NCBI RefSeq assembly: GCF_044324875.1 | Contig: NZ_CP172185.1 | Source of the DNA: Escherichia coli | Lineage (GTDB): Bacteria > Pseudomonadota > Gammaproteobacteria > Enterobacterales > Enterobacteriaceae | DNA length: 64,000 nucleotides | Reading direction: 5' to 3' (one strand) | In this document: piece by piece, positions 11,967 through 55,367 of the stretch | Position numbering within the stretch: position 1 is the first letter of the stretch | Layout: every line of letters begins with the position of its first letter | Program-made: the position numbers and the translations under genes | The notes under the pieces: generated by a model | What the model saw: the letters and a program-made list of their open reading frames with translations, nothing else | Told to the model about the DNA's origin: nothing | Database searches by the model: none

Positions 11967-13133
11967 TCAAACTGATGGACGCAAACGAACGCGTAACCAG
12001 CTGTATCCAATTACCGCCGAAGAGATAGAACCGACCAGGATACCGAGTTTCGCCCAGTTAATCAGTTCTGGATCTACGCTACCAAAGGCCAGGCTGGCAA
12101 TAAAGATAGACATAGTAAAACCGATACCGCACAGGATCCCCACCGCCATAATTTGCTGATAAGTCGTTCCCTCAGGCAGATGCGCCAGTTTCAAACGCAG
12201 CGCCAACCAGCAGAACAGACTAATCCCCAGCGGTTTGCCAATCAGCAAGCCAGCGATGATCCCCAATGGCAGAATGGAGGTCAAGCCATCCAGCGTGACG
12301 CCTTGCAGTGAAACGCCAGCATTAGCAAATGCAAACAGCGGTAAAATCAGATACGCCACCCACGGGTGCAACACATGCTCCAGTCGCTTCGCTGGAGAAC
12401 GCCCATGCTTCTCTTTCAAAGGAATAAAGAAGCCGACAATTACCCCCGCCAGGGTTGCGTGAACCCCCGATTTCAACACCGCAGTCCACAACACCACGCC
12501 AACCAGAATATAAACGCCCGTGCGGCGTACACCACACAGATTCAATACCGCGAGTACCGCAATTGCTACAGCCGCGACGCCAAGAGAGGCCATCGATAAG
12601 TCATTAGTGTAGAACAATGCGATGATAATGATGGCCCCAAGATCGTCGATAATAGCCAGAGCCATCAAAAAGATCTTCAGCGCTAACGGAACACGACTTC
12701 CCAATAGCGCCAGCACACCAAGTGCAAAAGCAATGTCAGTAGCCGCCGGGATCGCCCACCCTTCGCGGGTAATCGGATCGGCATGGTTAAAGGCCAGATA
12801 GAGTAATGCAGGCACAATCATCCCACCAATAGCGGCGATAACTGGAAATGCAGCCTGGCGTAAGCTGGCTAGCGATCCTTGCATCAGTTCACGTTTAACT
12901 TCCAGACCGACTAACAGGAAAAATACCGCCATCAGCGCGTCATTTATCCATAACAGCATGTTTTTGTTGATTTCGAGTGAACCAACCCGGAGCTGAACCG
13001 GCGTCTCCAGAAAGTCGTGATACCATCCACTGGTTGCGCCGCTGTTGGCCATAATCATCGCCAGGATAGCGGCAATGATAAGAATAATGCCTCCCGAGGC
13101 ATCACTGCTAAAGAATCGATGCAGATGTTTCAC
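11967..13133 (-). CDS. nhaA: Na+/H+ antiporter NhaA
   Basis: 388-aa polytopic membrane protein [52 protein letters not shown], recognised as NhaA. Confidence 0.95.
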
Positions 13134-13384
13134 TTTTTATTTCTCTTTCAGGTGAATAGATCGTTTTTACTATCTTACCCCGCACGAATCATCGTTAAAA
13201 TCAGATTATAGTGTAGGAATAATTCGTTTTTTACGAACCATTGAAGGATTTGTGCCATCAGCGATGAGATGAGTTTTTGACGGCTGTAAGCGCTCACGAG
13301 TGACCCTAAGCCCTGATAATCATAGCTTAAGGTCAGGATTTCTGAGGGATTAATTAGGAAAAGTAATAATAAAATCGCACTGTG

Positions 13385-14629
13385 CTATAGCTGTTTATTC
13401 CAGAGATGCTTGAAAATATCTAATGTTGAGACAACATTGGCAGGCGACATTCGGTTTAATGAGGGTAGAAAGGGATGAGCCTCCAGAAAGTTGATAAAAC
13501 GAGTCGCGCTTGCCAACGTCGAATACCGCATTTCATTTGCTTTCTTGTTTCCTGTAAGGTTACAAACAGCCATTGAATAATCACGGGCGGAAAATGCACG
13601 CCAGACATTATTTCTCACGCCACCACTCAAAAATAACCGCGGCGGCGTATCATAATGAGTCGTTTTCTCGCCGCGTTCTTTCACAAATGAAATATGGCAC
13701 CGGCCTTGATGAATATGCTGTAAATTAGCCATCAGACAACCGCCTAATATAAAGCACTCGTGATCAAGGTAGTGTTGAATATTTATAGAATATGCTTCAG
13801 TCAGTGCTCTAACCAGTTCAAAATGGCGATACGCCGGAAGAACCGGTTTCACCAGCATCCCCGGATCGTTTTGATGTAATATCGCCCGACCATAATCAAT
13901 ATCAAATAAGGTATCACGCCGCATAGTAAGTAACTCCTTGCGTTGTACGTGATGCGCCAGTGTACCTGGAGACAAACGCTCTTCATAACTTGATGCATAT
14001 TGATAATGCGACTCTACCGCTGATGAAGAATAATTTGTTGAAATAGCGACGACTCTACCGCTTTGTTCTTCTGCGGTAACAAGACTATAAAGATAGTTGT
14101 TACTACCGTTAAACTTTACGCGAAAAGCGCGGGTAGATAGAGAAATATCAGAAGCAGAAGAATACTGGCAACTTTCTTTATAGTTTACTTCCCGGGCTAG
14201 TTTCATCAACTCACGGTTAAGCCCTGTGCTATTAAGAAGTAATAATTTACGGATATCTGCAAGTGAAGCGCCTTGATCAATCATCAATGCTAAATGTGTT
14301 CTTCGTGGCGTTGTATTTACATGATCCAGAGTGATAAAAGTTCTGGAACAATGATGACAATACATTCTCCTCTGCCCCTGAGCTGAATAGCCATACTTTT
14401 TCAGAGATGTGCTTCCGCAAGCTGAACATTGTGGAACCAACCCTCTCCATGAATGATTAACACGATTACGATAAATATTAAGAGATCGTTCAGATATCAC
14501 AGGAAACAAGTAACCGCATTCCCGACATAAAATATTTTTGCCTTGTGCAATATAATCCTGGCTATTCAACAACCCCAGGTTTTTGCATCCTGGTGTTTTG
14601 CAACAATCAACATTTACGTTGGTAAACAT
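13385..14629 (-). CDS. Cys-rich zinc-ribbon / HTH-like protein of unknown function (about 414 aa from the Met with the best ribosome-binding site)
   Basis: GGGAG ribosome-binding site before the second in-frame ATG (MFTNVNVDCC...). N-terminus carries CC-x4-C, CRECG, CSACG and CHHC pairs; the segment CSACGSTS...YCHHCSRTF followed by a helix-turn-helix-like stretch resembles the zinc-ribbon DNA-binding module of IS1 InsA-type proteins; the C-terminal ~280 aa have no family I recognise. Confidence 0.65.
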   Translation of the reverse strand: MFTNVNVDCCKTPGCKNLGLLNSQDYIAQGKNILCRECGYLFPVISERSLNIYRNRVNHSWRGLVPQCSACGSTSLKKYGYSAQGQRRMYCHHCSRTFITLDHVNTTPRRTHLALMIDQGASLADIRKLLLLNSTGLNRELMKLAREVNYKESCQYSSASDISLSTRAFRVKFNGSNNYLYSLVTAEEQSGRVVAISTNYSSSAVESHYQYASSYEERLSPGTLAHHVQRKELLTMRRDTLFDIDYGRAILHQNDPGMLVKPVLPAYRHFELVRALTEAYSINIQHYLDHECFILGGCLMANLQHIHQGRCHISFVKERGEKTTHYDTPPRLFLSGGVRNNVWRAFSARDYSMAVCNLTGNKKANEMRYSTLASATRFINFLEAHPFLPSLNRMSPANVVSTLDIFKHLWNKQL

Positions 14630-43853: not shown

Positions 43854-44188
43854 AAGCGCATCCTCTAAGTGTAAATACATCAATGCAGCGTCATGCCGCG
43901 TAATAGATTTATGCTAACCAGTCATTGCCGTTTACGCCACGTTACGGACACTTTTTTACTTTTATACTCTAAATAATTCGAGTTGCAGGAAGGCGATAAG
44001 TGAGTGAGTCCCCAGGAGCTTACAGAAGTAAGTGACTGGGGTGAGCGAGCGTAAGCGCAGCACATGCAACTTGAAGTATGACGAGTATACTGCGAGGGTG
44101 ATCGACCGGCTGGGATTAGATAAGGAAACAGGCTACACTTCGCCTTTGAAAACTCATCATCACGATAAACATAGAGGCGAAGTCCAAC

Positions 44189-45856
44189 GTGGCTCAATTC
44201 GTTTATACCATGCATCGTGTCGGCAAAGTTGTTCCGCCGAAACGTCATATTTTGAAAAACATCTCTCTGAGTTTCTTCCCTGGGGCAAAAATTGGTGTCC
44301 TGGGTCTGAACGGCGCGGGTAAGTCCACCCTGCTGCGCATTATGGCGGGCATTGATAAAGACATCGAAGGCGAAGCGCGTCCGCAACCGGATATCAAGAT
44401 TGGTTATCTGCCGCAGGAACCGCAGCTGAACCCGGAACACACCGTGCGTGAGTCCATTGAAGAAGCGGTTTCAGAAGTGGTTAACGCCCTGAAACGCCTG
44501 GATGAAGTGTATGCGCTGTACGCCGATCCGGATGCCGATTTTGACAAGCTGGCCGCTGAACAAGGCCGTCTGGAAGAGATCATTCAGGCTCACGACGGTC
44601 ACAACCTGAACGTTCAGCTGGAGCGTGCGGCGGATGCGCTGCGTCTGCCGGACTGGGACGCGAAAATCGCTAACCTCTCCGGTGGTGAGCGTCGTCGCGT
44701 GGCGTTGTGCCGCCTGCTGCTGGAAAAACCAGACATGCTGCTGCTCGACGAACCGACCAACCACCTGGATGCCGAATCCGTGGCCTGGCTGGAACGCTTC
44801 CTGCACGACTTCGAAGGCACCGTTGTGGCGATTACCCACGACCGTTACTTCCTCGATAACGTTGCGGGCTGGATCCTCGAACTGGACCGCGGTGAAGGTA
44901 TTCCGTGGGAAGGTAACTACTCCTCCTGGCTGGAGCAGAAAGATCAGCGCCTGGCGCAGGAAGCTTCACAAGAAGCGGCGCGTCGTAAGTCGATCGAGAA
45001 AGAGCTGGAGTGGGTACGTCAGGGAACTAAAGGCCGCCAGTCGAAAGGTAAAGCACGTCTGGCACGCTTTGAAGAGCTGAACAGCACCGAATACCAGAAA
45101 CGTAACGAAACCAACGAACTGTTTATTCCACCTGGACCGCGTCTGGGCGATAAAGTGCTGGAAGTCAGCAACCTGCGTAAATCCTACGGCGATCGCCTGC
45201 TGATTGATGACCTGAGCTTCTCGATCCCGAAAGGGGCGATCGTCGGGATCATCGGTCCGAACGGCGCGGGTAAATCGACCCTGTTCCGTATGATCTCCGG
45301 TCAGGAACAGCCGGACAGCGGCACCATCACTTTGGGTGAAACGGTGAAACTGGCATCGGTTGATCAGTTCCGTGACTCAATGGATAACAGCAAAACCGTT
45401 TGGGAAGAAGTTTCCGGCGGGCTGGATATTATGAAGATCGGCAACACCGAGATGCCAAGCCGCGCCTACGTTGGCCGCTTTAACTTTAAAGGGGTTGATC
45501 AGGGTAAACGCGTTGGTGAACTTTCCGGTGGTGAGCGCGGTCGTCTGCATCTGGCGAAGCTGCTGCAAGTTGGCGGCAACATGCTGCTGCTCGACGAACC
45601 AACCAACGACCTGGATATCGAAACCCTGCGCGCGCTGGAAAACGCTCTGCTGGAGTTCCCGGGCTGCGCGATGGTTATCTCGCACGACCGTTGGTTCCTC
45701 GACCGTATCGCCACGCACATCCTGGACTACCAGGATGAAGGTAAAGTCGAGTTCTTCGAAGGTAACTTTACCGAGTACGAAGAATACAAGAAACGCACGC
45801 TGGGCGCAGACGCGCTGGAGCCGAAGCGTATCAAGTACAAGCGTATTGCGAAGTAA
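44189..45856 (+). CDS. ettA: Energy-dependent translational throttle ABC-F protein EttA
   Basis: 555-aa ORF MAQFVYTMHRVGKVVPPKRHILKNISLSFFPGAKIGVLGLNGAGKSTLLRIMAG with two ABC ATPase domains. Confidence 0.96.
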   Translation: MAQFVYTMHRVGKVVPPKRHILKNISLSFFPGAKIGVLGLNGAGKSTLLRIMAGIDKDIEGEARPQPDIKIGYLPQEPQLNPEHTVRESIEEAVSEVVNALKRLDEVYALYADPDADFDKLAAEQGRLEEIIQAHDGHNLNVQLERAADALRLPDWDAKIANLSGGERRRVALCRLLLEKPDMLLLDEPTNHLDAESVAWLERFLHDFEGTVVAITHDRYFLDNVAGWILELDRGEGIPWEGNYSSWLEQKDQRLAQEASQEAARRKSIEKELEWVRQGTKGRQSKGKARLARFEELNSTEYQKRNETNELFIPPGPRLGDKVLEVSNLRKSYGDRLLIDDLSFSIPKGAIVGIIGPNGAGKSTLFRMISGQEQPDSGTITLGETVKLASVDQFRDSMDNSKTVWEEVSGGLDIMKIGNTEMPSRAYVGRFNFKGVDQGKRVGELSGGERGRLHLAKLLQVGGNMLLLDEPTNDLDIETLRALENALLEFPGCAMVISHDRWFLDRIATHILDYQDEGKVEFFEGNFTEYEEYKKRTLGADALEPKRIKYKRIAK

Positions 45857-45863
45857 TGCGTAA

Positions 45864-45900
45864 AATGCCGGATGCGGCGCGCCAGCATCGCATCCGGTAT
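45864..45900. repeat. REP-like palindromic unit downstream of ettA
   Basis: tgccggatgcggcgcgccagcatcgcatccggta, an imperfect GC-rich palindrome of the REP type. Confidence 0.5.
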
Positions 45901-46011
45901 TAGTTAAATGATTAGTCCCCGGAAAAAAGCAAAATTTTCTTTAAGCGTATTAGCTCAGATGCGGACTGACATCTCAAATCAAGCGGGAACTCATGGTTCC
46001 CGCTTAACGTT

Positions 46012-46899
46012 TTATTCACCGCGCAGGATCTGGCGGAAATGGGAAACCAGCGGACGTTGGTTGGCTTTATGCCAGGCTGCCCATAATTGCGTTGAATAAT
46101 TCATCCACGGCAATTCACGTAATACCACCCCTTCCGGCGCATTATGACGCAGACTATTTTGAATTAAGGCCAGACCTAATCCCGCAGCGACCAAACCTAA
46201 TGCCGTGAGGGGTTCACCCGCTTCCAGGCGAATATCAGGATTAAACCCGGCGTTAACACAGGCGGCGACAAAATGATCGCGAGAATGCGCATCGTCGTTA
46301 TGAATCACCGCAATCCACTGCTCATCGCCAAGTTGTGACGCGACAAGGTTTTCCTCCTGCGCCAGAGGATGATTTTGCGGTAAGGCCAACAACATTCGAT
46401 CATCCAGAACCTGAATATATTCCAGATCCTGCTCGCTGTCGGTGGGCGGCGTATCGACCAGAGAAAAATCGAGACTGCGCTGACGCAGGCCTTCAATCTG
46501 GGTAGCCGGTGGTTGGCTGTAAAGAGCGATATGCACATTCGGACGCGATACACGTAACGTACGTAGCGCCGTAGAAAGCACACCGGAATGCATGGCGTTT
46601 TCGATATAGCCAATACACAAGCCACCATCTTCCCCCCGTCCCAGGCGTTTGCCTAACGACTCCAGGCGGTTGGCGTGTGTCAGCAACGAACGTGTTTCGG
46701 CAAGGAATGTCTGTCCATCAGCGGTCAGGCGAATGCGCTGCTGATTACGCTCAAACAGCGTCAGTCCCAGCCGTTCTTCCAGTTGTGCAATCTGGCGGCT
46801 CAGCGGCGATTGCGAGATATGTAATCGCTCGGCTGCGCGTCCCACGTGCTCTTCTTCTGCGACCACCACGAAGTACTTCAGTTGGCGTAAATCAATCAT
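46012..46899 (-). CDS. LysR-family transcriptional regulator
   Basis: MIDLRQLKYFVVVAEEEHVGRAAERLHISQSPLSRQIAQLEERLGLTLFERNQQRIRLT N-terminal HTH, followed by an effector-binding domain; divergent from the aldo-keto reductase gene. Confidence 0.85.
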   Translation of the reverse strand: MIDLRQLKYFVVVAEEEHVGRAAERLHISQSPLSRQIAQLEERLGLTLFERNQQRIRLTADGQTFLAETRSLLTHANRLESLGKRLGRGEDGGLCIGYIENAMHSGVLSTALRTLRVSRPNVHIALYSQPPATQIEGLRQRSLDFSLVDTPPTDSEQDLEYIQVLDDRMLLALPQNHPLAQEENLVASQLGDEQWIAVIHNDDAHSRDHFVAACVNAGFNPDIRLEAGEPLTALGLVAAGLGLALIQNSLRHNAPEGVVLRELPWMNYSTQLWAAWHKANQRPLVSHFRQILRGE

Positions 46900-47031
46900 G
46901 TTAGACCTCAAAGGACTTAAGTCAGACGAATTATGTCCTATCAAGTCACAACCTCGCAAGGTATTGTGATCCACGTCACAGGGCAATAGCAAAAAACGCC
47001 CGAACCCAAACCGAATAATTGAGGACATCTT

Positions 47032-48042
47032 ATGAGCATCAAAAATTTACTTCCCGGCAAAATTGGCTTAGGCGGCGCACCACTCGGCAACATGTTCCGT
47101 GCCATTCCGGAAGAAGAGGCCCACGCCACCGTGAGCGAAGCCTGGAACCTGGGTGTGCGTTACTTTGATACCGCGCCGCTGTACGGCTCTGGCCTTTCTG
47201 AAATCCGCATGGGTGAAGCGCTGTCTCAGTATCCACGCGATGAATACGTTCTGAGTAGCAAAGTCGGTCGCATCGTGCTGGACGAAATGGAAGATCCGGC
47301 AAAACGGGATTTCGGTGAAAAAGGTGGCCTGTTCGAACACGGCCTGAAAAACAAAATTCTGAATGACTACTCTGCTGACGCCACGCTGCGCTCGATTGAA
47401 GACAGCCTGAAACGCCTGAAAACAGATCGTCTGGATATTGTCTGGATCCACGACCCGGCGCAGGACTTCTACGGTGACAGCTGGCTGGAGCAGTTCAACA
47501 TAGCCCGTACCGGTGCGTTTCGTGCGCTGACGCGTTTGCGTGACGAAGGTGTGATTAAAGCCTGGGGACTGGGTGTCAACCGCGTCGAACCTTGCGAACT
47601 GACGCTGGCGCTGGACGAACCGAAGCCGGATGCGTTCCTGCTGGCGGGGCGTTATTCCCTGCTGGATCACGAACGTGCGCTGCAACGCCTGATGCCAGAA
47701 GCACTGGAACAGAACGTGGATATTGTTGTGGGCGGTCCGTACAGCTCTGGCGTACTGGCAGGCGGCGAGCACTTTGAATATCAGAAAGCTTCTGCGGCCA
47801 TCCAGCAGAAAGTGGCGCAAATTAACGCCATTGCCACACGTTTCAATGTGAACGTTAAAGCGGCTGCGCTGCAGTTCGCGCTGGCAAACCCGGCCGTTGC
47901 AGCGGTTATTCCTGGCTCCAGCCGTCCTGGCCGTATGGCAGAAGATCTGGCTGCACTGAATGCGCCTGTTCCGGCTGAATTCTGGGCAGAAATGCGCCGT
48001 CAAAATCTGGTTGCGGAAAACGCTCCGCTGCCGACCCGTTAA
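47032..48042 (+). CDS. Aldo-keto reductase family oxidoreductase (336 aa)
   Basis: N-terminal GLGGAPLGNMF...EAWNLGVRYFDTAPLYGSGLSE pattern typical of the AKR fold. Confidence 0.85.
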   Translation: MSIKNLLPGKIGLGGAPLGNMFRAIPEEEAHATVSEAWNLGVRYFDTAPLYGSGLSEIRMGEALSQYPRDEYVLSSKVGRIVLDEMEDPAKRDFGEKGGLFEHGLKNKILNDYSADATLRSIEDSLKRLKTDRLDIVWIHDPAQDFYGDSWLEQFNIARTGAFRALTRLRDEGVIKAWGLGVNRVEPCELTLALDEPKPDAFLLAGRYSLLDHERALQRLMPEALEQNVDIVVGGPYSSGVLAGGEHFEYQKASAAIQQKVAQINAIATRFNVNVKAAALQFALANPAVAAVIPGSSRPGRMAEDLAALNAPVPAEFWAEMRRQNLVAENAPLPTR

Positions 48043-48061
48043 TCAACCTGGTGAGAAAACG

Positions 48062-48858
48062 ATGAAACTGGATCTGACAGGTAAAGTCGCGGTGGTCAGC
48101 GGCTCAACCTCCGGCATTGGGCAGGGTATCGCCGCCGGACTGGCAAAAGCAGGCGCAACGGTGGTTGTCGTCGGCCGTAAACAGCGCGGCGTTGATGATG
48201 CCATGGCTGCGATTGCGGCACAAACTCCCACGGCGTCACTGCGCGGCGTGGTGGCCGATCTCAGCACCGAAGACGGCGTGGCTGCGCTGATCGCTGCAGT
48301 CCCAACGGCTGATGTGCTGGTCAATAATCTGGGCATTTTTAACGATAAAGATTTCTTTAGCGTTCCGGATGATGAGTGGATGCACTTCTATAACGTCAAC
48401 GTCCTCTCCGGCGTTCGTCTGGCGCGTCACTATGCGCCAGGCATGACGGAACAGGGCTGGGGCGGATTATCTTTGTCTCGTCTGAATCCGGCGTGGCAAT
48501 TCCTGGCGACATGATCAACTACGGCGTCACCAAAGCCGCGAATCTGGCGGTTTCTCATGGTCTGGCGAAACGACTGGCAGGGACCGGTGTGACCGTCAAC
48601 GCCATTCTGCCAGGGCCAACCTTTACCGATGGCCTGAAAGAGATGCTGGCGGATGCCGCTGCACAATCGGGACGCAGTGCGCGTGAACAGGCCGATGAGT
48701 TTGTTAAAACCTCGCGTCCGAGCTCCATCATCCAGCGTGCGGCGGATGTGGAAGAAGTGGCGAATCTGGCGGTTTATCTCGCGTCACCGCTTTCCTCGGC
48801 AACCACAGGGGCAGCCCTGCGCGTCGATGGCGGCGTCGTCGACACCCTGACAATGTAA
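48062..48858 (+). pseudogene. Short-chain dehydrogenase/reductase (SDR) interrupted by a frameshift near 48461-48466
   Basis: N-terminal half (MKLDLTGKVAVVSGSTSGIGQGIAAG..., Rossmann TGxxxGIG motif) is in one frame and ends prematurely; the catalytic half (...RIIFVSSESGVAIPGDMINYGVTKAA... with YxxxK) continues in another frame; the nucleotide context ggctggggcgga looks like a single-base indel. Confidence 0.7.
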
Positions 48859-48883
48859 CCCTATAAATTAAGAGAAAATTATC

Positions 48884-49300
48884 ATGGCTAAAACAACTGT
48901 ATCGATCGAAATTCCGGCTTCTGCCGACGCCGTATGGCAATTGATGGGCGGCTTTGATGCGCTGCCAGACTGGCTGCCGTTCATCCCGAAAAGCGTAGTG
49001 ACAGAAGGCGGTCGCGTTCGTTCGCTGACAACCTCTGACGGCGGCACTGTGGTTGAACGTCTGGAAGCGTTTGATAACCGTCAACGCAGTTATACCTATT
49101 CCATTATTCAGGCACCGTTCCCGGTGGTGGATTACCTCTCCACCATTACCGTTCATGAAACCGCCGACAGCCAGGTTTCCCGTGTGGAATGGTTCGGTGA
49201 ATTCACCCCGGTGAATGTGACGAACGAAGAGGCCGAAGCGCTGTTTACCGGCATCTATCGGGATGGTCTCAAGGCGCTGAAGGACAACTTTGTTGCCTGA
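48884..49300 (+). CDS. SRPBCC (Bet v1 / polyketide-cyclase-like) ligand-binding protein, 138 aa
   Basis: Size and the AVWQLMGGFDALPDWLP pattern resemble SRPBCC-fold proteins; assigned on composition and pattern only. Confidence 0.6.
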   Translation: MAKTTVSIEIPASADAVWQLMGGFDALPDWLPFIPKSVVTEGGRVRSLTTSDGGTVVERLEAFDNRQRSYTYSIIQAPFPVVDYLSTITVHETADSQVSRVEWFGEFTPVNVTNEEAEALFTGIYRDGLKALKDNFVA

Positions 49301-49457
49301 TGCGATCGACAGGCGTCGGAACGTCCGGCGTCTGATTATTAACAAAAACAGAATAGTCTATTGCCATTTGTATCATTTATGTTATCAGGCAGTAGGCGTA
49401 TTCTCTCCCCATCGCGTTAATAAACGCCAAACAATTAAGACACTCTGGAATATAAAC

Positions 49458-49670
49458 ATGAAAACGATCATCGCAATTTTTACGGCTTCTCTTTTCTCTG
49501 TCGCGGCGTTTAACGCATCGGCGCAAAGCGTGACAGCAACCGGTACAACACTGGATTCCGCTGAAGCGGTTATTGCGCAGAAAGCGAAAGAGATGAACGC
49601 CTCTGAATACAAAATTACCAGCGCTCGCATGGGCAATACCGTCACCATGAGTGCCGAACTGTACAAATAA
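49458..49670 (+). CDS. Small periplasmic DUF1471 (YdgH/BhsA/McbA-like) protein, 70 aa
   Basis: Signal peptide MKTIIAIFTASLFSVAAFNASA, then a ~50-aa domain ending in ...SAELYK, typical of this stress-associated family. Confidence 0.7.
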   Translation: MKTIIAIFTASLFSVAAFNASAQSVTATGTTLDSAEAVIAQKAKEMNASEYKITSARMGNTVTMSAELYK

Positions 49671-49718
49671 CCGCACGAGAGACCCATTACGTAATTTGCT
49701 AAATATGCGCTGAATGCG

Positions 49719-49990
49719 TTGCCATTAATAAACCGTATTGTAATGCCACCGATGACGCGTTCCCGTGCGGGTGACGTTGCGACTGACATAATGGCGGCCT
49801 ATTACGCGCAGCGCGCCAGTGCTGGACTTTTCATTAGCGAAGGTACGCAAATCAGCAGAAGCGCTGCGCATAATTTTCCACGGCACGCTGATTTACTCCG
49901 GTAAAGACACCAAAGCGCGCGCCGAACAGGCGCTGGCTAACGGCTAGTCGGATCTGATTGGATTTGGTCGTCCGTATAGTGCCAAAAGCG
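49719..49990 (+). pseudogene. Remnant of an old-yellow-enzyme (NemA-like NADH:flavin oxidoreductase) gene
   Basis: MPLINRIVMPPMTRSRA...DIMAAYYAQRASAGLFISEGTQIS matches the OYE N-terminal FMN-binding region but stops after about 60 codons; a downstream out-of-frame stretch (...DLIGFGRPY...) resembles the OYE C-terminus, consistent with an internal deletion. Confidence 0.55.
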
Positions 49991-50097
49991 GAAGTTGGTA
50001 GTTTCAGCCTATGTTGATAAACGGGGAGCCGGTCAGCACGTAAAGAGATTTTTTTGTACTGCTATGGCCCGATCAAAAATCGATTGAGCCGAATGTG

Positions 50098-50469
50098 CTA
50101 GCTATCTCCGAAGATAATTTTTTCGAGCTCCTGCAAGTCCTGCTGTGATTGCTCGTTAAGGTTAGCCTCTAACTTGTCGTACCATGTAAGCAGTTTCTTG
50201 CCAAGTGGTGTCAAAACCGAGCCTCCACCTTTACTGCCGCCTGTTGATGTAATTACCACCGGCTTACCTATGCCTTTATTGAGTGTATCAATCAGGAGCC
50301 ACGCCCTTTTATAGGGGATTCCCAGATCTTTTGCGGCAGCTGAAAGGGAATGAAACCCATCTATAGCTCGTAAAAGATCGATTTTCCCCGGTCCCAGCGA
50401 GATATTGTCATTAATGTAGATTCGGGGTCTGACCAAAATAAAATCAAACATAAGCGTTTTTTTATTCAT
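50098..50469 (-). CDS. ModE N-terminal-domain-like winged-helix regulator (about 120 aa)
   Basis: ...LSAAAKDLGIPYKRAWLLIDTLNKGIGKPVVITSTGGSKGGGSVLTPLGKKLL resembles the ModE N-terminal DNA-binding domain; start codon is ambiguous (Met at 50487, 50469 or 50451). Confidence 0.6.
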   Translation of the reverse strand: MNKKTLMFDFILVRPRIYINDNISLGPGKIDLLRAIDGFHSLSAAAKDLGIPYKRAWLLIDTLNKGIGKPVVITSTGGSKGGGSVLTPLGKKLLTWYDKLEANLNEQSQQDLQELEKIIFGDS

Positions 50470-50494
50470 TCTGAGAACTCCGTGCAAAGTATTT

Positions 50495-50914
50495 TTATCG
50501 GGTGTGTTTGAAAGTTTTGATGGCAGAAATAAGAAGGATCACACCAAGTAAAGTCATAAGGGCTTTAAGTGGGAACAAGCCGACCATAAGTCCACCAATT
50601 GCTGCACCAATTACTGAACCAATAACCATCCATACAAACAGTGTCCTTTCTTGCTTCAGAATCAGGAAAGCATCTGCATTTATATAACGGGAAAAGCCAA
50701 CAATCATTGTTGGCAGGCTAATCATCAGTGAAAGACTTCCGGCCAGTTTAATATCTTCCCCGAAAAGGATAACGATTGTGGGGATAAGAAGCTCTCCGCC
50801 AGCCACTCCGAGCAATGCTGCGACTATCCCGATAAAGCCCCCTGATACCACCCCCACAATAATCATGGCAAGGCCAGGTTGAAATAACCCGCCTGAAATA
50901 CTGTGCAACGGCAT
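50495..50914 (-). CDS. DUF81 (TauE/SafE sulfite-exporter family) permease, C-terminal half (139 aa)
   Basis: Four predicted transmembrane helices with the GVAGGELLIPTIV motif; starts at the codon immediately after the TAG that ends the upstream half, in the same frame. Confidence 0.65.
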   Translation of the reverse strand: MPLHSISGGLFQPGLAMIIVGVVSGGFIGIVAALLGVAGGELLIPTIVILFGEDIKLAGSLSLMISLPTMIVGFSRYINADAFLILKQERTLFVWMVIGSVIGAAIGGLMVGLFPLKALMTLLGVILLISAIKTFKHTR

Positions 50915-51301
50915 CTAGGCTTCAGAGAGCATGACAAAAGACAGTAAAACAAGCAGGATCAGAATGATTCTGTCCAGCCAGATTCTGGACATCTTTATGG
51001 CACGACCTGCGGCCCACCATGCTCCAATAAGACTTCCTGCCAGCAAATTTATGACAATATCAAGATGCGCCACCAACTGATCAAAAGATATAGATTTTGT
51101 TCGGAAAATTAAAGCAATAGCCACCACGGCGAGACTCATTGCTTTGTTAAAAATGACGGCTTCCAGAGAAGGGATTTTGAAACTACCGATCAGTACGGGA
51201 AGGCGAAATTCAGCCCCTCCGAGGCCAATCAACCCACCTAAAGCCCCTATTACCGCGCCTGAGAAAAAACCTTTACCATTCCTGTTTGAAACTGACGACA
51301 T
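50915..51301 (-). CDS. DUF81 (TauE/SafE family) permease, N-terminal half (128 aa)
   Basis: Four predicted transmembrane helices with the GLGGAEFRLPVLI motif; ends at a TAG that is immediately followed in frame by the ATG of the second half. Confidence 0.65.
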   Translation of the reverse strand: MSSVSNRNGKGFFSGAVIGALGGLIGLGGAEFRLPVLIGSFKIPSLEAVIFNKAMSLAVVAIALIFRTKSISFDQLVAHLDIVINLLAGSLIGAWWAAGRAIKMSRIWLDRIILILLVLLSFVMLSEA

Positions 51302-51714
51302 GCGTTCCTCTCTAATTCGTTATGTCTTTTTTGACATAACGACAAGCATAGCATTGCAGAACAGGCGTCTGGTAGTTGCTTGTAAAGACGAGGATTGATC
51401 CAGGTTAAAATTTATTCTATTAACCTGCTCTCCGTTGTTTAACACACCACGATTTATGTGATGCTTTCATGAGAAATTAAAACAACTAAGAACTTCCGCT
51501 TCTCGCTCGAAGCGGACTGTCAGATTTGATTGCATTCTGGCTACGCAACTGGTCGGTTGGAGTATGAAGTTGCTCACGAATAGCCTTAGCATCCGCAATT
51601 TCGTAGCGGGTCACCCGTGCAGGTTCTTTCTAATCTCAACAGCCTCTTCCAGAGAGTTTTTCAACTCATCAAAAAACTCAATTTATACCTCGCCTTTGAG
51701 CCGTTTCATCACGG

Positions 51715-52947
51715 TTATCTCTGCTCCCCCATCATCTCCCGCACAAGTTCCACGCAGCGCAGGAAACGGCTGTCATAATCGTCCTCTTCAACACGCACGA
51801 ATTCGATATTGTTCTCTTCCAGCATCTCCACCAGCAAGTTCTGGAACTCTTTGCGATCCACCGAACTACCGAGGCTGCGTAAACCATCCGCCACCCACGG
51901 GGTGTTGTTCTCCAGCAAGATAACCAGATCAAAACGGTATTCATCAATCAGCGCCTGCACGAACGGATGCTCACGCCCTTCGTACTTTTTGCAGAACGCC
52001 TGGGTAGTGACAAAATCAGTGTCGATAAACGCCACTTTATTGGCGTATTTCACTGCAAAATCAATATATTGCGCGTGTCCCAGCGCGATTTTATCGTAGT
52101 CAGAATACTGCAATGCGATCTCATCACCGCCGAGGTGTGAAAAGACATAATCGCGACCATATTCCCACGCACTGGTGGTATTGAAGATATTGGCAAGTTT
52201 GTTTACCAGGGTGGATTTACCGCTCGACTCGCCGCCAAGGATCGCCACGGTACGCACAAAAAACGGCTTCACTTCAGTGGGGATATATTCCCAGTAGCGG
52301 AACGGGTTTTCGCGGATCTGCGCACCGCTGATACTCATAAAGGTGCGTTTCGGATCGACCAGCACCGTTTCGATCCCCAGATGTTCCATATACTGTGGCG
52401 CATCGGCTTCTTCCGAGGTGTAGATCAGGTCCGGCTGGATCCCCTTTTCAGCCATAAACTTTTTGATGCCATTGCTCCACACATCCCAGCCGTGCGGATA
52501 TGGCTCCATGCCCTCTTCGTTGAAAGCATGAATACGGATATTTTTCTGATATTTAAAGGTTTGCAATAACCAGCGCAGACGATCCGGCACGGTGGGCTGC
52601 TGCGACATGGCGCTGTCTTCAAACAACGCACGGTCACGGGTATCGTCAAAGCCCATAATGATATGCAGCTCGTCAACCTGGCTACAGGCGCGCTGGATAA
52701 GGTAGATATGTCCGGTATGTAGCGGGTAGAACTTACCGAATACGACACCAATGGTTTTCTTCTGCCGGGGAAATTCAAGCCCCAAAAAACGGTGCAACGC
52801 CTCCAGCTTTTGCGCGCTGGGGCTTTTAATTTTGGCATTCAGTAACTGGCTTAAATACCCTTTGGTCATACCGCTGGCATCAGCTACCTGCTGTAGCGTG
52901 CAGCCCTGTTGCTTGATGGCAGTTTTCAGGTAATCAAATGACGACAT
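51715..52947 (-). CDS. nadR: Trifunctional NAD biosynthesis/regulator protein NadR
   Basis: MSSFDYLKTAIKQQGCTLQQVADASGMTKGYLSQLLNAK HTH, followed by NMN adenylyltransferase and ribosylnicotinamide kinase (P-loop GGESSGKST) domains. Confidence 0.95.
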   Translation of the reverse strand: MSSFDYLKTAIKQQGCTLQQVADASGMTKGYLSQLLNAKIKSPSAQKLEALHRFLGLEFPRQKKTIGVVFGKFYPLHTGHIYLIQRACSQVDELHIIMGFDDTRDRALFEDSAMSQQPTVPDRLRWLLQTFKYQKNIRIHAFNEEGMEPYPHGWDVWSNGIKKFMAEKGIQPDLIYTSEEADAPQYMEHLGIETVLVDPKRTFMSISGAQIRENPFRYWEYIPTEVKPFFVRTVAILGGESSGKSTLVNKLANIFNTTSAWEYGRDYVFSHLGGDEIALQYSDYDKIALGHAQYIDFAVKYANKVAFIDTDFVTTQAFCKKYEGREHPFVQALIDEYRFDLVILLENNTPWVADGLRSLGSSVDRKEFQNLLVEMLEENNIEFVRVEEDDYDSRFLRCVELVREMMGEQR

Positions 52948-52967
52948 ATCTCCCTCCGTATCTCTCA

Positions 52968-54350
52968 TTATAAGTCGTCGAACACGCTAAGCGCGTCGGA
53001 GAGTTTTTTAACGCCAAAAATCTGCATCCCTTCCGGCGCTTTTTTCGGCACGTTAGCCGCCGGAACAATCGCCCGCCGAAAACCGTGTTTCGCCGCTTCA
53101 GAGATTCGTTCCTGGCCGCTGGGCACCGGGCGGATCTCCCCTGCCAGCCCGACTTCACCAAACACCACCAGATCCTGCGGTAGCGGTCTATCACGCAGGC
53201 TGGAAACCATCGCCAGCAGTAACGCTAAGTCGGCACTGGTTTCCGTCACCTTCACGCCGCCGACCACGTTAACAAATACATCCTGATCGGCCATTTGCAA
53301 CCCACCGTGACGGTGCAGCACCGCCAGCAGGATTGCCAGACGGTTTTGCTCCAGCCCTACTGCGACGCGGCGTGGATTCGCCATCATCGAGTGATCGACC
53401 AATGCCTGGATCTCCACCAGCAGTGGACGCGTTCCTTCCCATACCACCATCACTGAGCTACCGGAGGTCACTTCATCACCGCGGCTTAAAAAGATGGCGG
53501 AAGGGTTGCTAACTTCACGCAGCCCCTGTTCGGTCATCGCGAAGACGCCCAGCTCATTCACCGCGCCGAAGCGGTTTTTATGGCTGCGTAAGGTGCGAAA
53601 ACGGGAGTCGGCATCGCCATCCAGAAGCACCGAACAGTCGATACAGTGTTCCAGCACTTTAGGGCCAGCCAGCGAGCCATCTTTGGTTACGTGCCCAACC
53701 ATGACAATCGCCACACCGCGCGTTTTGGCGAAGCGCGTCAGATAAGCCGCCGTTTCACGCACCTGCGCCACGCTGCCAGGCGATGACTGAACATCCGCCA
53801 TATGCATCACCTGGATCGAGTCAATTACCATCAGCTTCGGTTGCTCTTCTTCGGCAATCAGGCAGATTTGTTCGATGCTGGTTTCAGACAGCATATTGAG
53901 ATTGTCAGTCGGCAGGCCAAGGCGATGAGCGCGCATTGCCACCTGTTGCAGCGACTCTTCGCCGGTGACATACAGCGTTTTCATCTGCTGGGCCAGTTTG
54001 CACAGCGTTTGCAACAGCAGCGTGGATTTCCCCGCGCCTGGGTTACCGCCAATCAGAATGGCGCTTCCCGGCACCACCCCGCCGCCTAATACGCGGTCGA
54101 ACTCTTTAAATCCGGTGGAAAAACGCGGCAGCTCTTCAAGGCTGATGTCGGAAAGTTTCTGGACTTTTGCCACCCCGGCGCTACCGGCATAGCCACTGAG
54201 ACGCTCGTTACGCGCCACCGTTGGCGACGCTGCAAGACGCACCTCGGTGATGGTGTTCCAGGCATGACAGGCGCTGCACTGCCCCTGCCAGCGCGGATAA
54301 TCGGCCCCGCATTCATTACAAACAAAGGCGCGTTTTGGAGCTTTTGCCAC
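52968..54350 (-). CDS. radA: DNA repair protein RadA (Sms)
   Basis: GTG start (VAKAPKRAFVCNECGADYPRWQGQCSACHAWNTITE zinc finger), RecA-like P-loop GGNPGAGKSTLLLQ and a Lon-like C-terminus. Confidence 0.95.
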   Translation of the reverse strand: MAKAPKRAFVCNECGADYPRWQGQCSACHAWNTITEVRLAASPTVARNERLSGYAGSAGVAKVQKLSDISLEELPRFSTGFKEFDRVLGGGVVPGSAILIGGNPGAGKSTLLLQTLCKLAQQMKTLYVTGEESLQQVAMRAHRLGLPTDNLNMLSETSIEQICLIAEEEQPKLMVIDSIQVMHMADVQSSPGSVAQVRETAAYLTRFAKTRGVAIVMVGHVTKDGSLAGPKVLEHCIDCSVLLDGDADSRFRTLRSHKNRFGAVNELGVFAMTEQGLREVSNPSAIFLSRGDEVTSGSSVMVVWEGTRPLLVEIQALVDHSMMANPRRVAVGLEQNRLAILLAVLHRHGGLQMADQDVFVNVVGGVKVTETSADLALLLAMVSSLRDRPLPQDLVVFGEVGLAGEIRPVPSGQERISEAAKHGFRRAIVPAANVPKKAPEGMQIFGVKKLSDALSVFDDL

Positions 54351-54398
54351 GGTGTACCTCGTTAATGCTGTGCCGCCCGCAGGATGACGGGCGAGCAA

Positions 54399-55367
54399 TT
54401 ACTTCTGATTCAGGCTGCCAGAGAGGATGCAGAATACCCCCATCAGGTCAGCGTGACGGATGGTGACTTCCGTCTTTTCATTCACTTTTGGCTTGGCATG
54501 GTAGGCAATCCCCAGCCCTGCCGCTTTGATCATCGGCAGGTCATTGGCTCCATCACCAATCGCCACGGTCTGCGCCAGCGGGATTTCATACTCCTGCGCG
54601 AGGCGAGTCAGAGTTTTCGCTTTGTACTGCGCGTCTACGATGTCGCCGATCACATTGCCGGTAAATTTACCGTCCATGATCTCCAGTTCATTGGCTACCA
54701 CGGCTGTCAGGCGCAGCTTGTCGCGCAGGTATTCAGCAAAGAAAGTAAAGCCACCGGAGGCAATCGCCACTTTCCAGCCCAGCGTTTCCAGCTTGAGTAC
54801 CAGTTGCGTTAAGCCTGGCATCAGCGGCAGATTTTCACGCACCTGTTGCAGAATATTGGCGTCAGCGCCTTTCAGCGTCGCCACGCGGCTGCGCAGGCTG
54901 GCGGTAAAATCGAGTTCGCCGCGCATCGCCCGTTCGGTTACCTCCGCCACCATCTCGCCCGTTCCGGCCAGTTTGGCAATTTCATCAATACATTCAATCT
55001 GGATGGCGGTGGAATCCATGTCCATCACCAGCAAACCCGGCGTGCGCAGGTGCGGGATTTTCCCCAGCGGCGCGACATCCAGCTGCGCTTCGTGAGCCAG
55101 GCGCGTAGCCCGCGCGGTGAGTGAACCTGCCAGACGAATCACCTGATAATCTTCCACGCACCAGGCGGCAACAATCACCATCGCCGCGCCCAGTTTGCTC
55201 TGGTATTGGGTCAGACGTTGTTTATCCAGCCCACGACCATACAGCAGCCAGCCGCTACGACCTGCGTGGTAATCCAGTGGCATCACTTCATCACCACTTA
55301 ATGAAAGAGGCAGCCCCGGCCATAAAGAGACATCTTCAGGCAGGTCGCACCAGGTAATGTTAGGCAT
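54399..55367 (-). CDS. serB: Phosphoserine phosphatase
   Basis: MPNITWCDLPEDVSLWPGLPLSLSGDEVMPLDYHAGRSGWLLYGRG... with the HAD motif DMDSTAI; 322 aa from the internal Met. Confidence 0.95.
   Translation of the reverse strand: MPNITWCDLPEDVSLWPGLPLSLSGDEVMPLDYHAGRSGWLLYGRGLDKQRLTQYQSKLGAAMVIVAAWCVEDYQVIRLAGSLTARATRLAHEAQLDVAPLGKIPHLRTPGLLVMDMDSTAIQIECIDEIAKLAGTGEMVAEVTERAMRGELDFTASLRSRVATLKGADANILQQVRENLPLMPGLTQLVLKLETLGWKVAIASGGFTFFAEYLRDKLRLTAVVANELEIMDGKFTGNVIGDIVDAQYKAKTLTRLAQEYEIPLAQTVAIGDGANDLPMIKAAGLGIAYHAKPKVNEKTEVTIRHADLMGVFCILSGSLNQK

Follow-up and report, generated by a model that had tools for sequence, protein, structure and literature searches.

Escherichia coli counters electrophiles and reactive carbonyls with units that combine a regulator and its reductases, among them nemR-nemA-gloA, yqhC-yqhD-dkgA and rclR-rclABC. 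These units place a dedicated regulator beside NAD(P)H-dependent oxidoreductases of the aldo-keto reductase (AKR) and old yellow enzyme (OYE) families. A gene set of the same general kind lies in the DNA analysed here, a stretch of 64,000 nucleotides from the E. coli contig NZ_CP172185.1 (assembly GCF_044324875.1; hereafter the window), in which 5.8 kb of accessory sequence (45857-51714) run from the stop codon of ettA to that of the convergent gene nadR. The interval is likely a horizontally assembled mosaic islet at a site that holds nadS and its toxin-antitoxin locus in other strains: a left cassette of detoxification type joined to a plasmid-derived oxyanion module that was captured later, with a short-chain dehydrogenase/reductase (SDR) and a TauE permease inactivated recently.

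The site itself is known to vary. K-12 has a 307-bp gene-free spacer between nadR and ettA, and adherent-invasive E. coli (AIEC) strains carry the parE-3/yiaG-2 (RelE/ParE-NadS) toxin-antitoxin islet there (PMC7232551). We found the same 307 bp with zero annotated genes in K-12 MG1655, and in the AIEC strain LF82 an intact NadS / RelE-ParE pair with no island. In the window, nadS survives as two relics:
45900-45945, minus strand: nadS 3'-end relic with an 11-bp deletion, from local alignment to the C-terminal codons of LF82 nadS (ending in IKENPAFFRELASH and the stop codon).
51523-51681 (start approximate), minus strand: nadS 5' relic, frameshifted, aligned to LF82 nadS; its homologues are annotated as a partial NadS pseudogene.

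The last ~14 codons of nadS are thus kept beside ettA and the first ~57 beside nadR, and with relics on both sides the insert sits within a disrupted nadS, whose middle it would have replaced. The RelE/ParE toxin gene is absent from the interval, leaving no adjacent intact toxin-antitoxin pair. The window therefore shares its chromosomal site with the LF82/AIEC islet and keeps remains of nadS, but it has lost the toxin gene, its nadS is in two parts, and unrelated cargo of 5.6 kb fills the site. K-12 and most other E. coli retain the nadS relic alone, and relics flank the insert in all carriers. The hallmarks of a classical single island (integrase, tRNA or attachment site, flanking direct repeats) were sought and none was found: no tRNA lies within 20 kb of the interval, and E. 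coli WP4-S18-ESBL-07 has no recombinase among the annotated genes of its homologous interval.

Comparison with 5,426 complete E. coli genomes separated the insert into two parts of different distribution. The left five genes and the OYE remnant occur in ~485 of the genomes (~9%); the regulator/TauE pair is additionally present in only 20, and 20 genomes match the whole structure colinearly, with 98.4-98.7% identity and 100% of the query covered. These share the same junctions, which excludes a misassembly. In other strains the slot of the right module holds different cargo, a GNAT gene in strain 1190 and a DUF2846 gene in strain 48, and in some E. coli it is empty through a small deletion that also removed flanking bases. 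An initial annotation, made from the window sequence alone, had proposed a ~5.8-kb accessory region between the convergent ettA and nadR that K-12 lacks, and had named eight genes or remnants in it. Its limits coincide with the two stop codons, and all eight are present, including the divergent LysR / AKR pair, the frameshifted SDR, the OYE remnant and the split DUF81 permease, which owes its state to a TGG to TAG nonsense mutation. The region is accessory as proposed; the single island of that annotation resolves into two independently mobile modules within a disrupted nadS.

The left cassette consists of the following features:
45979-49985, both strands: left cassette, a LysR gene divergent from AKR-SDR-SRPBCC-DUF1471-OYE remnant, delimited by colinear blocks in other Escherichia.
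45981-46005, plus strand: hairpin with an 11-pair stem (DNA fold z-score -4.4) in the first bases of the shared cassette, probably the terminator of the LysR gene.
46012-46899, minus strand: LysR-type regulator, 295 aa, intact; NCBIfam LysR-type transcriptional regulator (LTTR) models to E = 3.6e-66 (AlsR, 3-292).
46903-46951, divergent region: conserved control block with the palindrome GACTTAAGTC, candidate LysR operator, from an alignment of 12 taxa.
47032-48042, plus strand: AKR, 336 aa, intact; closest solved structures L-galactose dehydrogenases (E = 2e-29).
48062-48858, plus strand: SDR oxidoreductase pseudogene with a -1 frameshift, G5 of intact homologues being G4 at 48459-48462.
48884-49300, plus strand: SRPBCC / Polyketide_cyc2 protein, 138 aa, intact; Pfam PF10604 E = 1.9e-30 over residues 1-136.
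49458-49670, plus strand: DUF1471 (YhcN/BhsA/RclB-like) small secreted-type protein, 70 aa, intact, from the annotation of RefSeq homologues.
~49695-49985, plus strand: NemA-like OYE remnant; NemA subfamily E = 1.9e-13.

This cassette is found at three chromosomal sites in three Escherichia lineages, and the homology always begins at the hairpin that follows the LysR gene (45979-45981). Outside ettA-nadR, it adjoins yhiN in 'E. coli' E69 (CP089930.1; 97.6% identical), and E. whittamii has it between glyS and ghrB (95.4% identical); it is a self-contained block that travels between genomes. In E69 the OYE is intact, a 365-aa NemA-like protein at 12659-13756 (396 bits vs a cut-off of 403), as it is in Yokenella. 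Against this 365-aa copy, the window remnant has lost its start, carries a 686-bp internal deletion at 49856/49857 and is truncated at its 3' end at ~49985; it keeps ~47 N-terminal and ~43 C-terminal residues, and with them no intact FMN-binding TIM barrel. E. whittamii has a separate OYE deletion (12656-13111) whose end points differ from those of the E. coli copies, so that the two deletions read as independent. The OYE would have been disrupted before the E. coli copies diverged from one another.

The cassette also extends well beyond Escherichia. A scan of one genome per species returned 570 AKR relatives, among them a Yersinia AKR of 92-93% identity, and gene order was read at the best 80 of them. 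At nearly all of these 80 loci a LysR gene diverges from AKR-SDR-SRPBCC, while a few are without the SDR or are cut by a contig end. They include Trabulsiella, Yokenella, Yersinia, Raoultella, Klebsiella, Serratia, Providencia, Ewingella and Acinetobacter, together with some sixty Pseudomonas, one Duganella and one Streptomyces record. Enterobacterales loci often add a DUF1471 gene and an OYE gene to this four-gene core. The genes 3' of SRPBCC vary between taxa, with no conserved extra partner that would reveal a pathway, and in the conserved core there is neither a transporter nor a lactonase, dehydratase, kinase or aldolase.

Several details of these comparison records deserve mention in their own right. 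E69 is labelled Escherichia coli, yet its yhiN-prlC core is only ~92.5% identical to E. coli, and it looks like another Escherichia species. Downstream of its intact OYE, 13800-14080 read by eye like the C-terminal part of another LysR-type gene, followed at 14211-14290 by a degenerate doublet of the hairpin units described below. A 1.4-kb contig in a Collinsella metagenome-assembled genome (JAIJJM010000794.1) carries the Escherichia AKR at 99% identity, probably through misbinning. The Streptomyces sp. Ru62 contig NZ_PQSU01000008.1 holds LysR and AKR-SRPBCC at 75% identity, by cross-phylum transfer or contamination.

The right module comprises two genes on the same strand:
49986-51490, minus strand (both genes): exchangeable cargo, the tauE / modE-N-like module, delimited by plasmid homology and cargo swaps.
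50098-50469, minus strand: ModE-N-type winged-helix regulator, 123 aa, without Mop/TOBE domains; TIGR00637 81 bits vs a cut-off of 98.5.
50495-51301, minus strand: TauE/SafE (TSUP, DUF81) permease pseudogene, W129 to stop; Pfam PF01925 E = 1.7e-18 for the intact allele.

Its relatives are plasmid-borne. Positions 49979-51522 are 91.8% identical to the IncN plasmid pCTX-M15_Kpn2166 of Klebsiella pneumoniae, in which the pair abuts the nickel/cobalt resistance genes ncrABCY; the module is found on 228 plasmids, 188 of them conjugative, and many large plasmids, in Citrobacter, Klebsiella, Salmonella and others, have copies of 86% identity. One IncHI2-like plasmid was examined; there a serine recombinase gene adjoins the pair, and a second TauE, whose partner is an FmdE-family protein, is close by. 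In Edwardsiella tarda (5001-6244 in comparison loci L094-L096) a TauE / 122-aa regulator pair is cargo of a lambdoid prophage, between replication and Rha-type genes. The right module would thus be a plasmid-borne two-gene operon, tauE then the modE-N-like gene, captured later between two hairpin units.

The two modules also differ in age. Compared with E. coli WP4-S18-ESBL-07, the window diverges as follows:
ettA: 2.2%.
nadR: 2.6%.
radA: 3.9%.
Left cassette: 1.35%.
Right module: 0.13% (2 of 1,505 bases).

With 0.13% against 2.2-3.9% in the flanking core genes, the right module is recent, and one of its two differences is the TauE nonsense mutation itself. Base composition separates the parts as well, G+C being 53-59% in the left cassette and 41-47% in the right module, so that the insert deviates from its flanks in both directions. 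Every intact gene of the left cassette has a dN/dS of 0.02-0.16 against four comparators, with 0.04-0.07 for the LysR regulator, which differs from WP_000566334 by one amino acid.

These values bear on the two lesions. The SDR copy of the window is frameshifted at about codon 133, upstream of the Ser/Tyr/Lys residues, and is therefore not the uninterrupted chain of a classical SDR; once repaired, the protein has the sequence of the intact E. coli allele WP_000762714 (100% identity) and shows both the TGxxxGxG and the Ser…YxxxK motifs. In tauE, TGG has become TAG (changed base 50916, codon 50915-50917), an in-frame nonsense mutation directly followed by ATG, and a frameshift as the cause of the split was rejected. 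Since both lesions are one-nucleotide changes in reading frames (nearly) identical to intact alleles, they are single, recent events private to this strain, in genes otherwise under purifying selection, with the OYE and nadS relics as the only old, shared ones. The initial annotation had seen several decaying genes, an old acquisition and relaxed selection. On none of these counts do the data agree with it: each strain-specific lesion comes down to one nucleotide, only 2 of 1,505 bases differ in the right module where ettA, nadR and radA differ by 2.2-3.9%, and dN/dS is low throughout the left cassette.

Both edges of the exchangeable cargo, and less clearly the left edge of the whole insert, are marked by short hairpin units:
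45949-45972, plus strand: A-type hairpin unit in degenerate form, on the left edge of the insert; its 19-nt GCTCAGATGCGGACTGACA agrees with the unit at 51505-51523 in 16 of 19 positions.
49970-50003, plus strand: left arm of a 34-nt imperfect inverted repeat, a B-type hairpin unit, from an inverted-repeat search (76% complementary).
51484-51517, plus strand: right arm of the 34-nt inverted repeat, containing an intact A-type hairpin unit at 51494-51517.

Each repeat arm is built on a 24-nt hairpin unit, GTCCGCT-N10-AGCGGAC. The units come with two types of loop, A and B, and are often paired in ~72-nt doublets. The 5' arm of the left unit is OYE coding sequence, which makes this a microhomology junction, and the GNAT and DUF2846 cargos use the same junctions as the tauE module. 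The degenerate 19-nt similarity is the sole link between the two edges of the insert. On the IncN plasmid the module is preceded by ~72 nt that make up a complete pair of units and fold into one long, imperfect hairpin. Similar doublets are present on 473 plasmids, mainly of Klebsiella, Enterobacter and Pantoea, and at 1-3 copies in 466 E. coli genomes; zero are expected by chance, and none occurred in 1.7 Mb of unrelated loci. In E. coli AR_0128 the units separate DJ-1 / DinB / NUDIX / AraC-TauE modules, and on a Pantoea megaplasmid they separate ArsR / SDR / hypothetical / LysE / DUF4440-GrpB modules. Further units lie in the comparison loci L087 (5943-6008), L097 (3504-3568), L098 (3503-3568), L099 (3505-3568) and L102 (13488-18649). 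One- or two-gene modules bracketed by the units, which are unannotated, thus occur on plasmids, in an integrative element and at ettA-nadR. The GNAT cargo was also found on Rahnella and Pantoea megaplasmids, with at most one unit nearby, and the DUF2846 cargo gave weak matches only.

In this arrangement the units resemble integron arrays and REP/REPIN (repetitive extragenic palindromic) sequences, in which short imperfect palindromes likewise bound one- or two-gene modules, with cargo typically of GNAT, NUDIX, DinB or toxin-antitoxin type. They differ in their mixed gene orientations, in their low copy number in E. coli, in arms conserved in sequence, without co-variation, and in the AAC/GTT core sites, which are not conserved among the four full copies; the units as canonical integron attC sites were rejected on this last ground. 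With 1-3 doublets in 466 genomes they were also rejected as an abundant native E. coli REP. No Rfam family matched them, and the annotated loci examined showed no integron integrase gene, the search in the 64-kb window covering 43-54.5 kb. The simplest view is that the units are dispersed repeats that give homology for module exchange. It is rather improbable, in our estimate, that they are the recombination sites of an undescribed cassette-shuffling system, integrase-independent or acting in trans, that serves plasmids, integrative elements and chromosomal docking sites of the Enterobacterales.

In the left cassette, the LysR regulator matches LTTR models over its full length, and its RefSeq homologue is a 'LysR substrate-binding domain-containing protein'; it falls below every named-equivalog cut-off (AlsR, HcaR, OxyR etc., e.g. 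223.6 vs 430, 207.3 vs 290). The AKR catalytic tetrad D46, Y51, K77, H140 is readable by inspection of the translation, which places the protein in the AKR superfamily, below the YdjG, DkgA and DkgB equivalog cut-offs (72 vs 550 for YdjG, 38 vs 327, 27.9 vs 425). The SDR matches PDB 8G9M (E = 1.5e-137) and resembles sorbose reductase and 3-hydroxybutyrate dehydrogenases. The SRPBCC protein matches PF10604 over its full length and PDB 3CNW 'XoxI' (E = 4e-52); the close relatives of these two proteins are structural-genomics entries without known function (3CNW 'XoxI', 8G9M, 3T4X). The DUF1471 protein gives weak NCBIfam matches to BhsA, RclB and YhcN (best 31 bits vs a cut-off of 90), its RefSeq homologues are annotated as DUF1471 / YdgH-BhsA-McbA family, and its N-terminus looks by inspection like a signal peptide. 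Upstream, a 49-bp block beside the LysR start varies hardly at all in 12 taxa that range from Escherichia to Acinetobacter, and makes a good candidate operator; the LysR gene has a promoter-like site at 46959-46930.

The most likely role of the left cassette, as judged from these assignments, is carbonyl or electrophile reduction. An effector, plausibly a reactive carbonyl, quinone or other electrophile, would trigger the LysR regulator via the operator block by its start; the regulator would then activate the operon, whose NAD(P)H-dependent AKR, SDR and, originally, OYE would reduce the compound. The operon would also supply the SRPBCC ligand-binding protein and the small secreted DUF1471 stress-type protein. 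This reading follows from the mix of AKR, SDR, OYE and DUF1471, the dedicated regulator, the lack of a transporter or downstream catabolic enzyme, and the variable neighbours. The rcl unit has a DUF1471 periplasmic protein, to which the DUF1471-type protein of the left cassette would correspond. Unlike the nem, yqh and rcl units, the cassette has a regulator of LysR rather than TetR or AraC type, an AKR of the L-galactose-dehydrogenase-like branch rather than DkgA or YdjG, and an SRPBCC protein in its conserved core.

TSUP permeases consist of two internal repeats, each of about four predicted membrane spans. The intact TauE allele covers positions 2-236 of the 237 in PF01925 and shares this two-repeat architecture, residues 11-38 of the first half aligning with 21-48 of the second; the window copy is truncated by a TAG at codon 129, so that it does not join both repeats in a single chain. 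Its partner shares with ModE the homologous N-terminal winged-helix DNA-binding domain and matches PDB 2IJL (E = 2e-18), whereas ModE adds two molybdate-binding Mop/TOBE domains that the 123-aa protein is without; it scores 54.5 vs 369 with the full-length ModE model and stays below the TIGR00637 cut-off. What sets this subfamily apart from other TSUP permeases is the pairing with a ModE-N regulator and its setting, which is not that of sulfonate/sulfite pathways. In Burkholderia, Methylomonas and metagenomic contigs, orthologous pairs are embedded in modA-modA-tauE-modB-modC operons on Tn3-type elements, with the regulator 57% identical (Burkholderia), TauE ~65% identical and mod genes that pass NCBIfam equivalog cut-offs. 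Because of this context we propose a molybdate-class oxyanion as the substrate: the right module would transport it under control of the ModE-like repressor, going by gene neighbourhood in other bacteria. The initial annotation had joined a detoxification cassette to an anion-exporter module. The two-module make-up is borne out, detoxification gains some support from the intact NemA-like OYE elsewhere, and the anion module is sharpened by the mod operons, while nothing found supports export as the direction of transport.

An alternative history would make the region ancestral to Escherichia at ettA-nadR, with loss in K-12 and most lineages. The left cassette diverges by 1.35%, about as much as the flanks do at their best identities (98.3-98.7%), nadS relics flank the insert in all carriers, and no integrase or tRNA is present, all of which would suit differential loss. 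Yet the cassette occupies three sites in three Escherichia lineages and interrupts a nadS that is intact, with no cassette trace, in LF82; it is carried by only ~9% of genomes, its AKR is 92-93% identical to a Yersinia protein, G+C departs from the flanks both ways, and the right module is plasmid-like and almost undiverged, which together leave an ancestral origin very unlikely. The inactivated genes invite two further objections. Sequencing or assembly errors might have produced both 'pseudogenes' in a fully functional islet, since the SDR lacks one base of a G5 homopolymer and both repaired products are (nearly) identical to intact alleles; the TauE lesion, however, is a G to A substitution, not a homopolymer error, and the 1,505 bp of the right module show just one other difference, and we hold error as the cause of both lesions to be decidedly unlikely. 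Alternatively, the split TauE might work as two half-size subunits, as its stop at codon 129 lies between the aligning internal repeats and TAG and ATG are adjacent (TAGATG, 50914-50917). Close homologues, among those listed, are all single chains of ~267-281 aa, no clear ribosome-binding site is evident, and such a two-piece permease seems highly improbable.

The function of the left cassette is the more contestable point. Its core could be a catabolic unit for sugar oxidation, an aldose 1-dehydrogenase with a ketoreductase, as the L-galactose dehydrogenases nearest to the AKR and the sorbose reductase-like SDR would suggest; a core that has none of the transporter, lactonase, dehydratase, kinase or aldolase genes of such a pathway, downstream neighbours that differ by taxon, and the company of a NemA-like OYE and a DUF1471 stress-type protein in Enterobacterales make this unlikely, though it is the alternative we take most seriously. 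Several observations weigh against the mosaic, detoxification-type islet that we favour. The AKR's closest solved relatives, being L-galactose dehydrogenases, suit a catabolic role equally well; the NCBIfam matches of the AKR, LysR, DUF1471 and ModE domain all lie below curated cut-offs, and we infer the links from genes to substrates from sequence. The tauE/regulator pair was never beside modABC in the Enterobacterales loci examined, and the window regulator is without the molybdate-sensing Mop domains. No recombinase, tRNA or target duplication accounts for the movement of the left cassette, and the SDR frameshift in its G-run could be a sequencing error, the tauE substitution less likely so.

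Viewed as a whole, the interval is an ordinary accessory islet at a site of known variability, machine-annotated in RefSeq and apparently without description in the papers searched; among those listed, a screen of titles and abstracts returned nothing relevant on the left cassette or on a TauE-ModE link. Its parts are of wider use. The LysR/AKR-SDR-SRPBCC unit, under strong purifying selection from Escherichia to Pseudomonas, is a clean target for the assignment of function. The TauE/ModE-N pair offers a gene-context lead to molybdate-class transport, a testable hypothesis for a poorly understood permease family, and rides conjugative resistance plasmids beside metal-resistance genes. The hairpin-bracketed slot is a worked example of small-module exchange at a fixed chromosomal site.

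The interval was also screened for other kinds of element. The PADLOC anti-phage models gave no match for seven proteins, and the Rfam scan of the interval returned no known RNA family; one match, resembling the enterobacterial repetitive intergenic consensus (ERIC), fell outside it. The core flanks are:
44189-45856, plus strand: ettA, left core flank, an open reading frame annotated as ettA in E. coli genomes.
51715-52947, minus strand: nadR, right core flank, from its open reading frame and annotation in homologues.

The best match of ettA among 5,421 E. coli genomes compared has 98.7% identity, and the flanking core genes together (44189-45856, 51715-60000) are at best 98.3-98.7% identical to any of the 5,426 complete genomes, which places the strain outside the well-sampled E. 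coli phylogroups, and possibly in a cryptic lineage. Between slt and ettA lies an element of ~128 bp of the ERIC/IRU (intergenic repeat unit) type (43962-44089), absent in the compared E. coli genomes. It has a weak Rfam V_AS5 match of 36 bits and matches the ERIC2 primer sequence perfectly.

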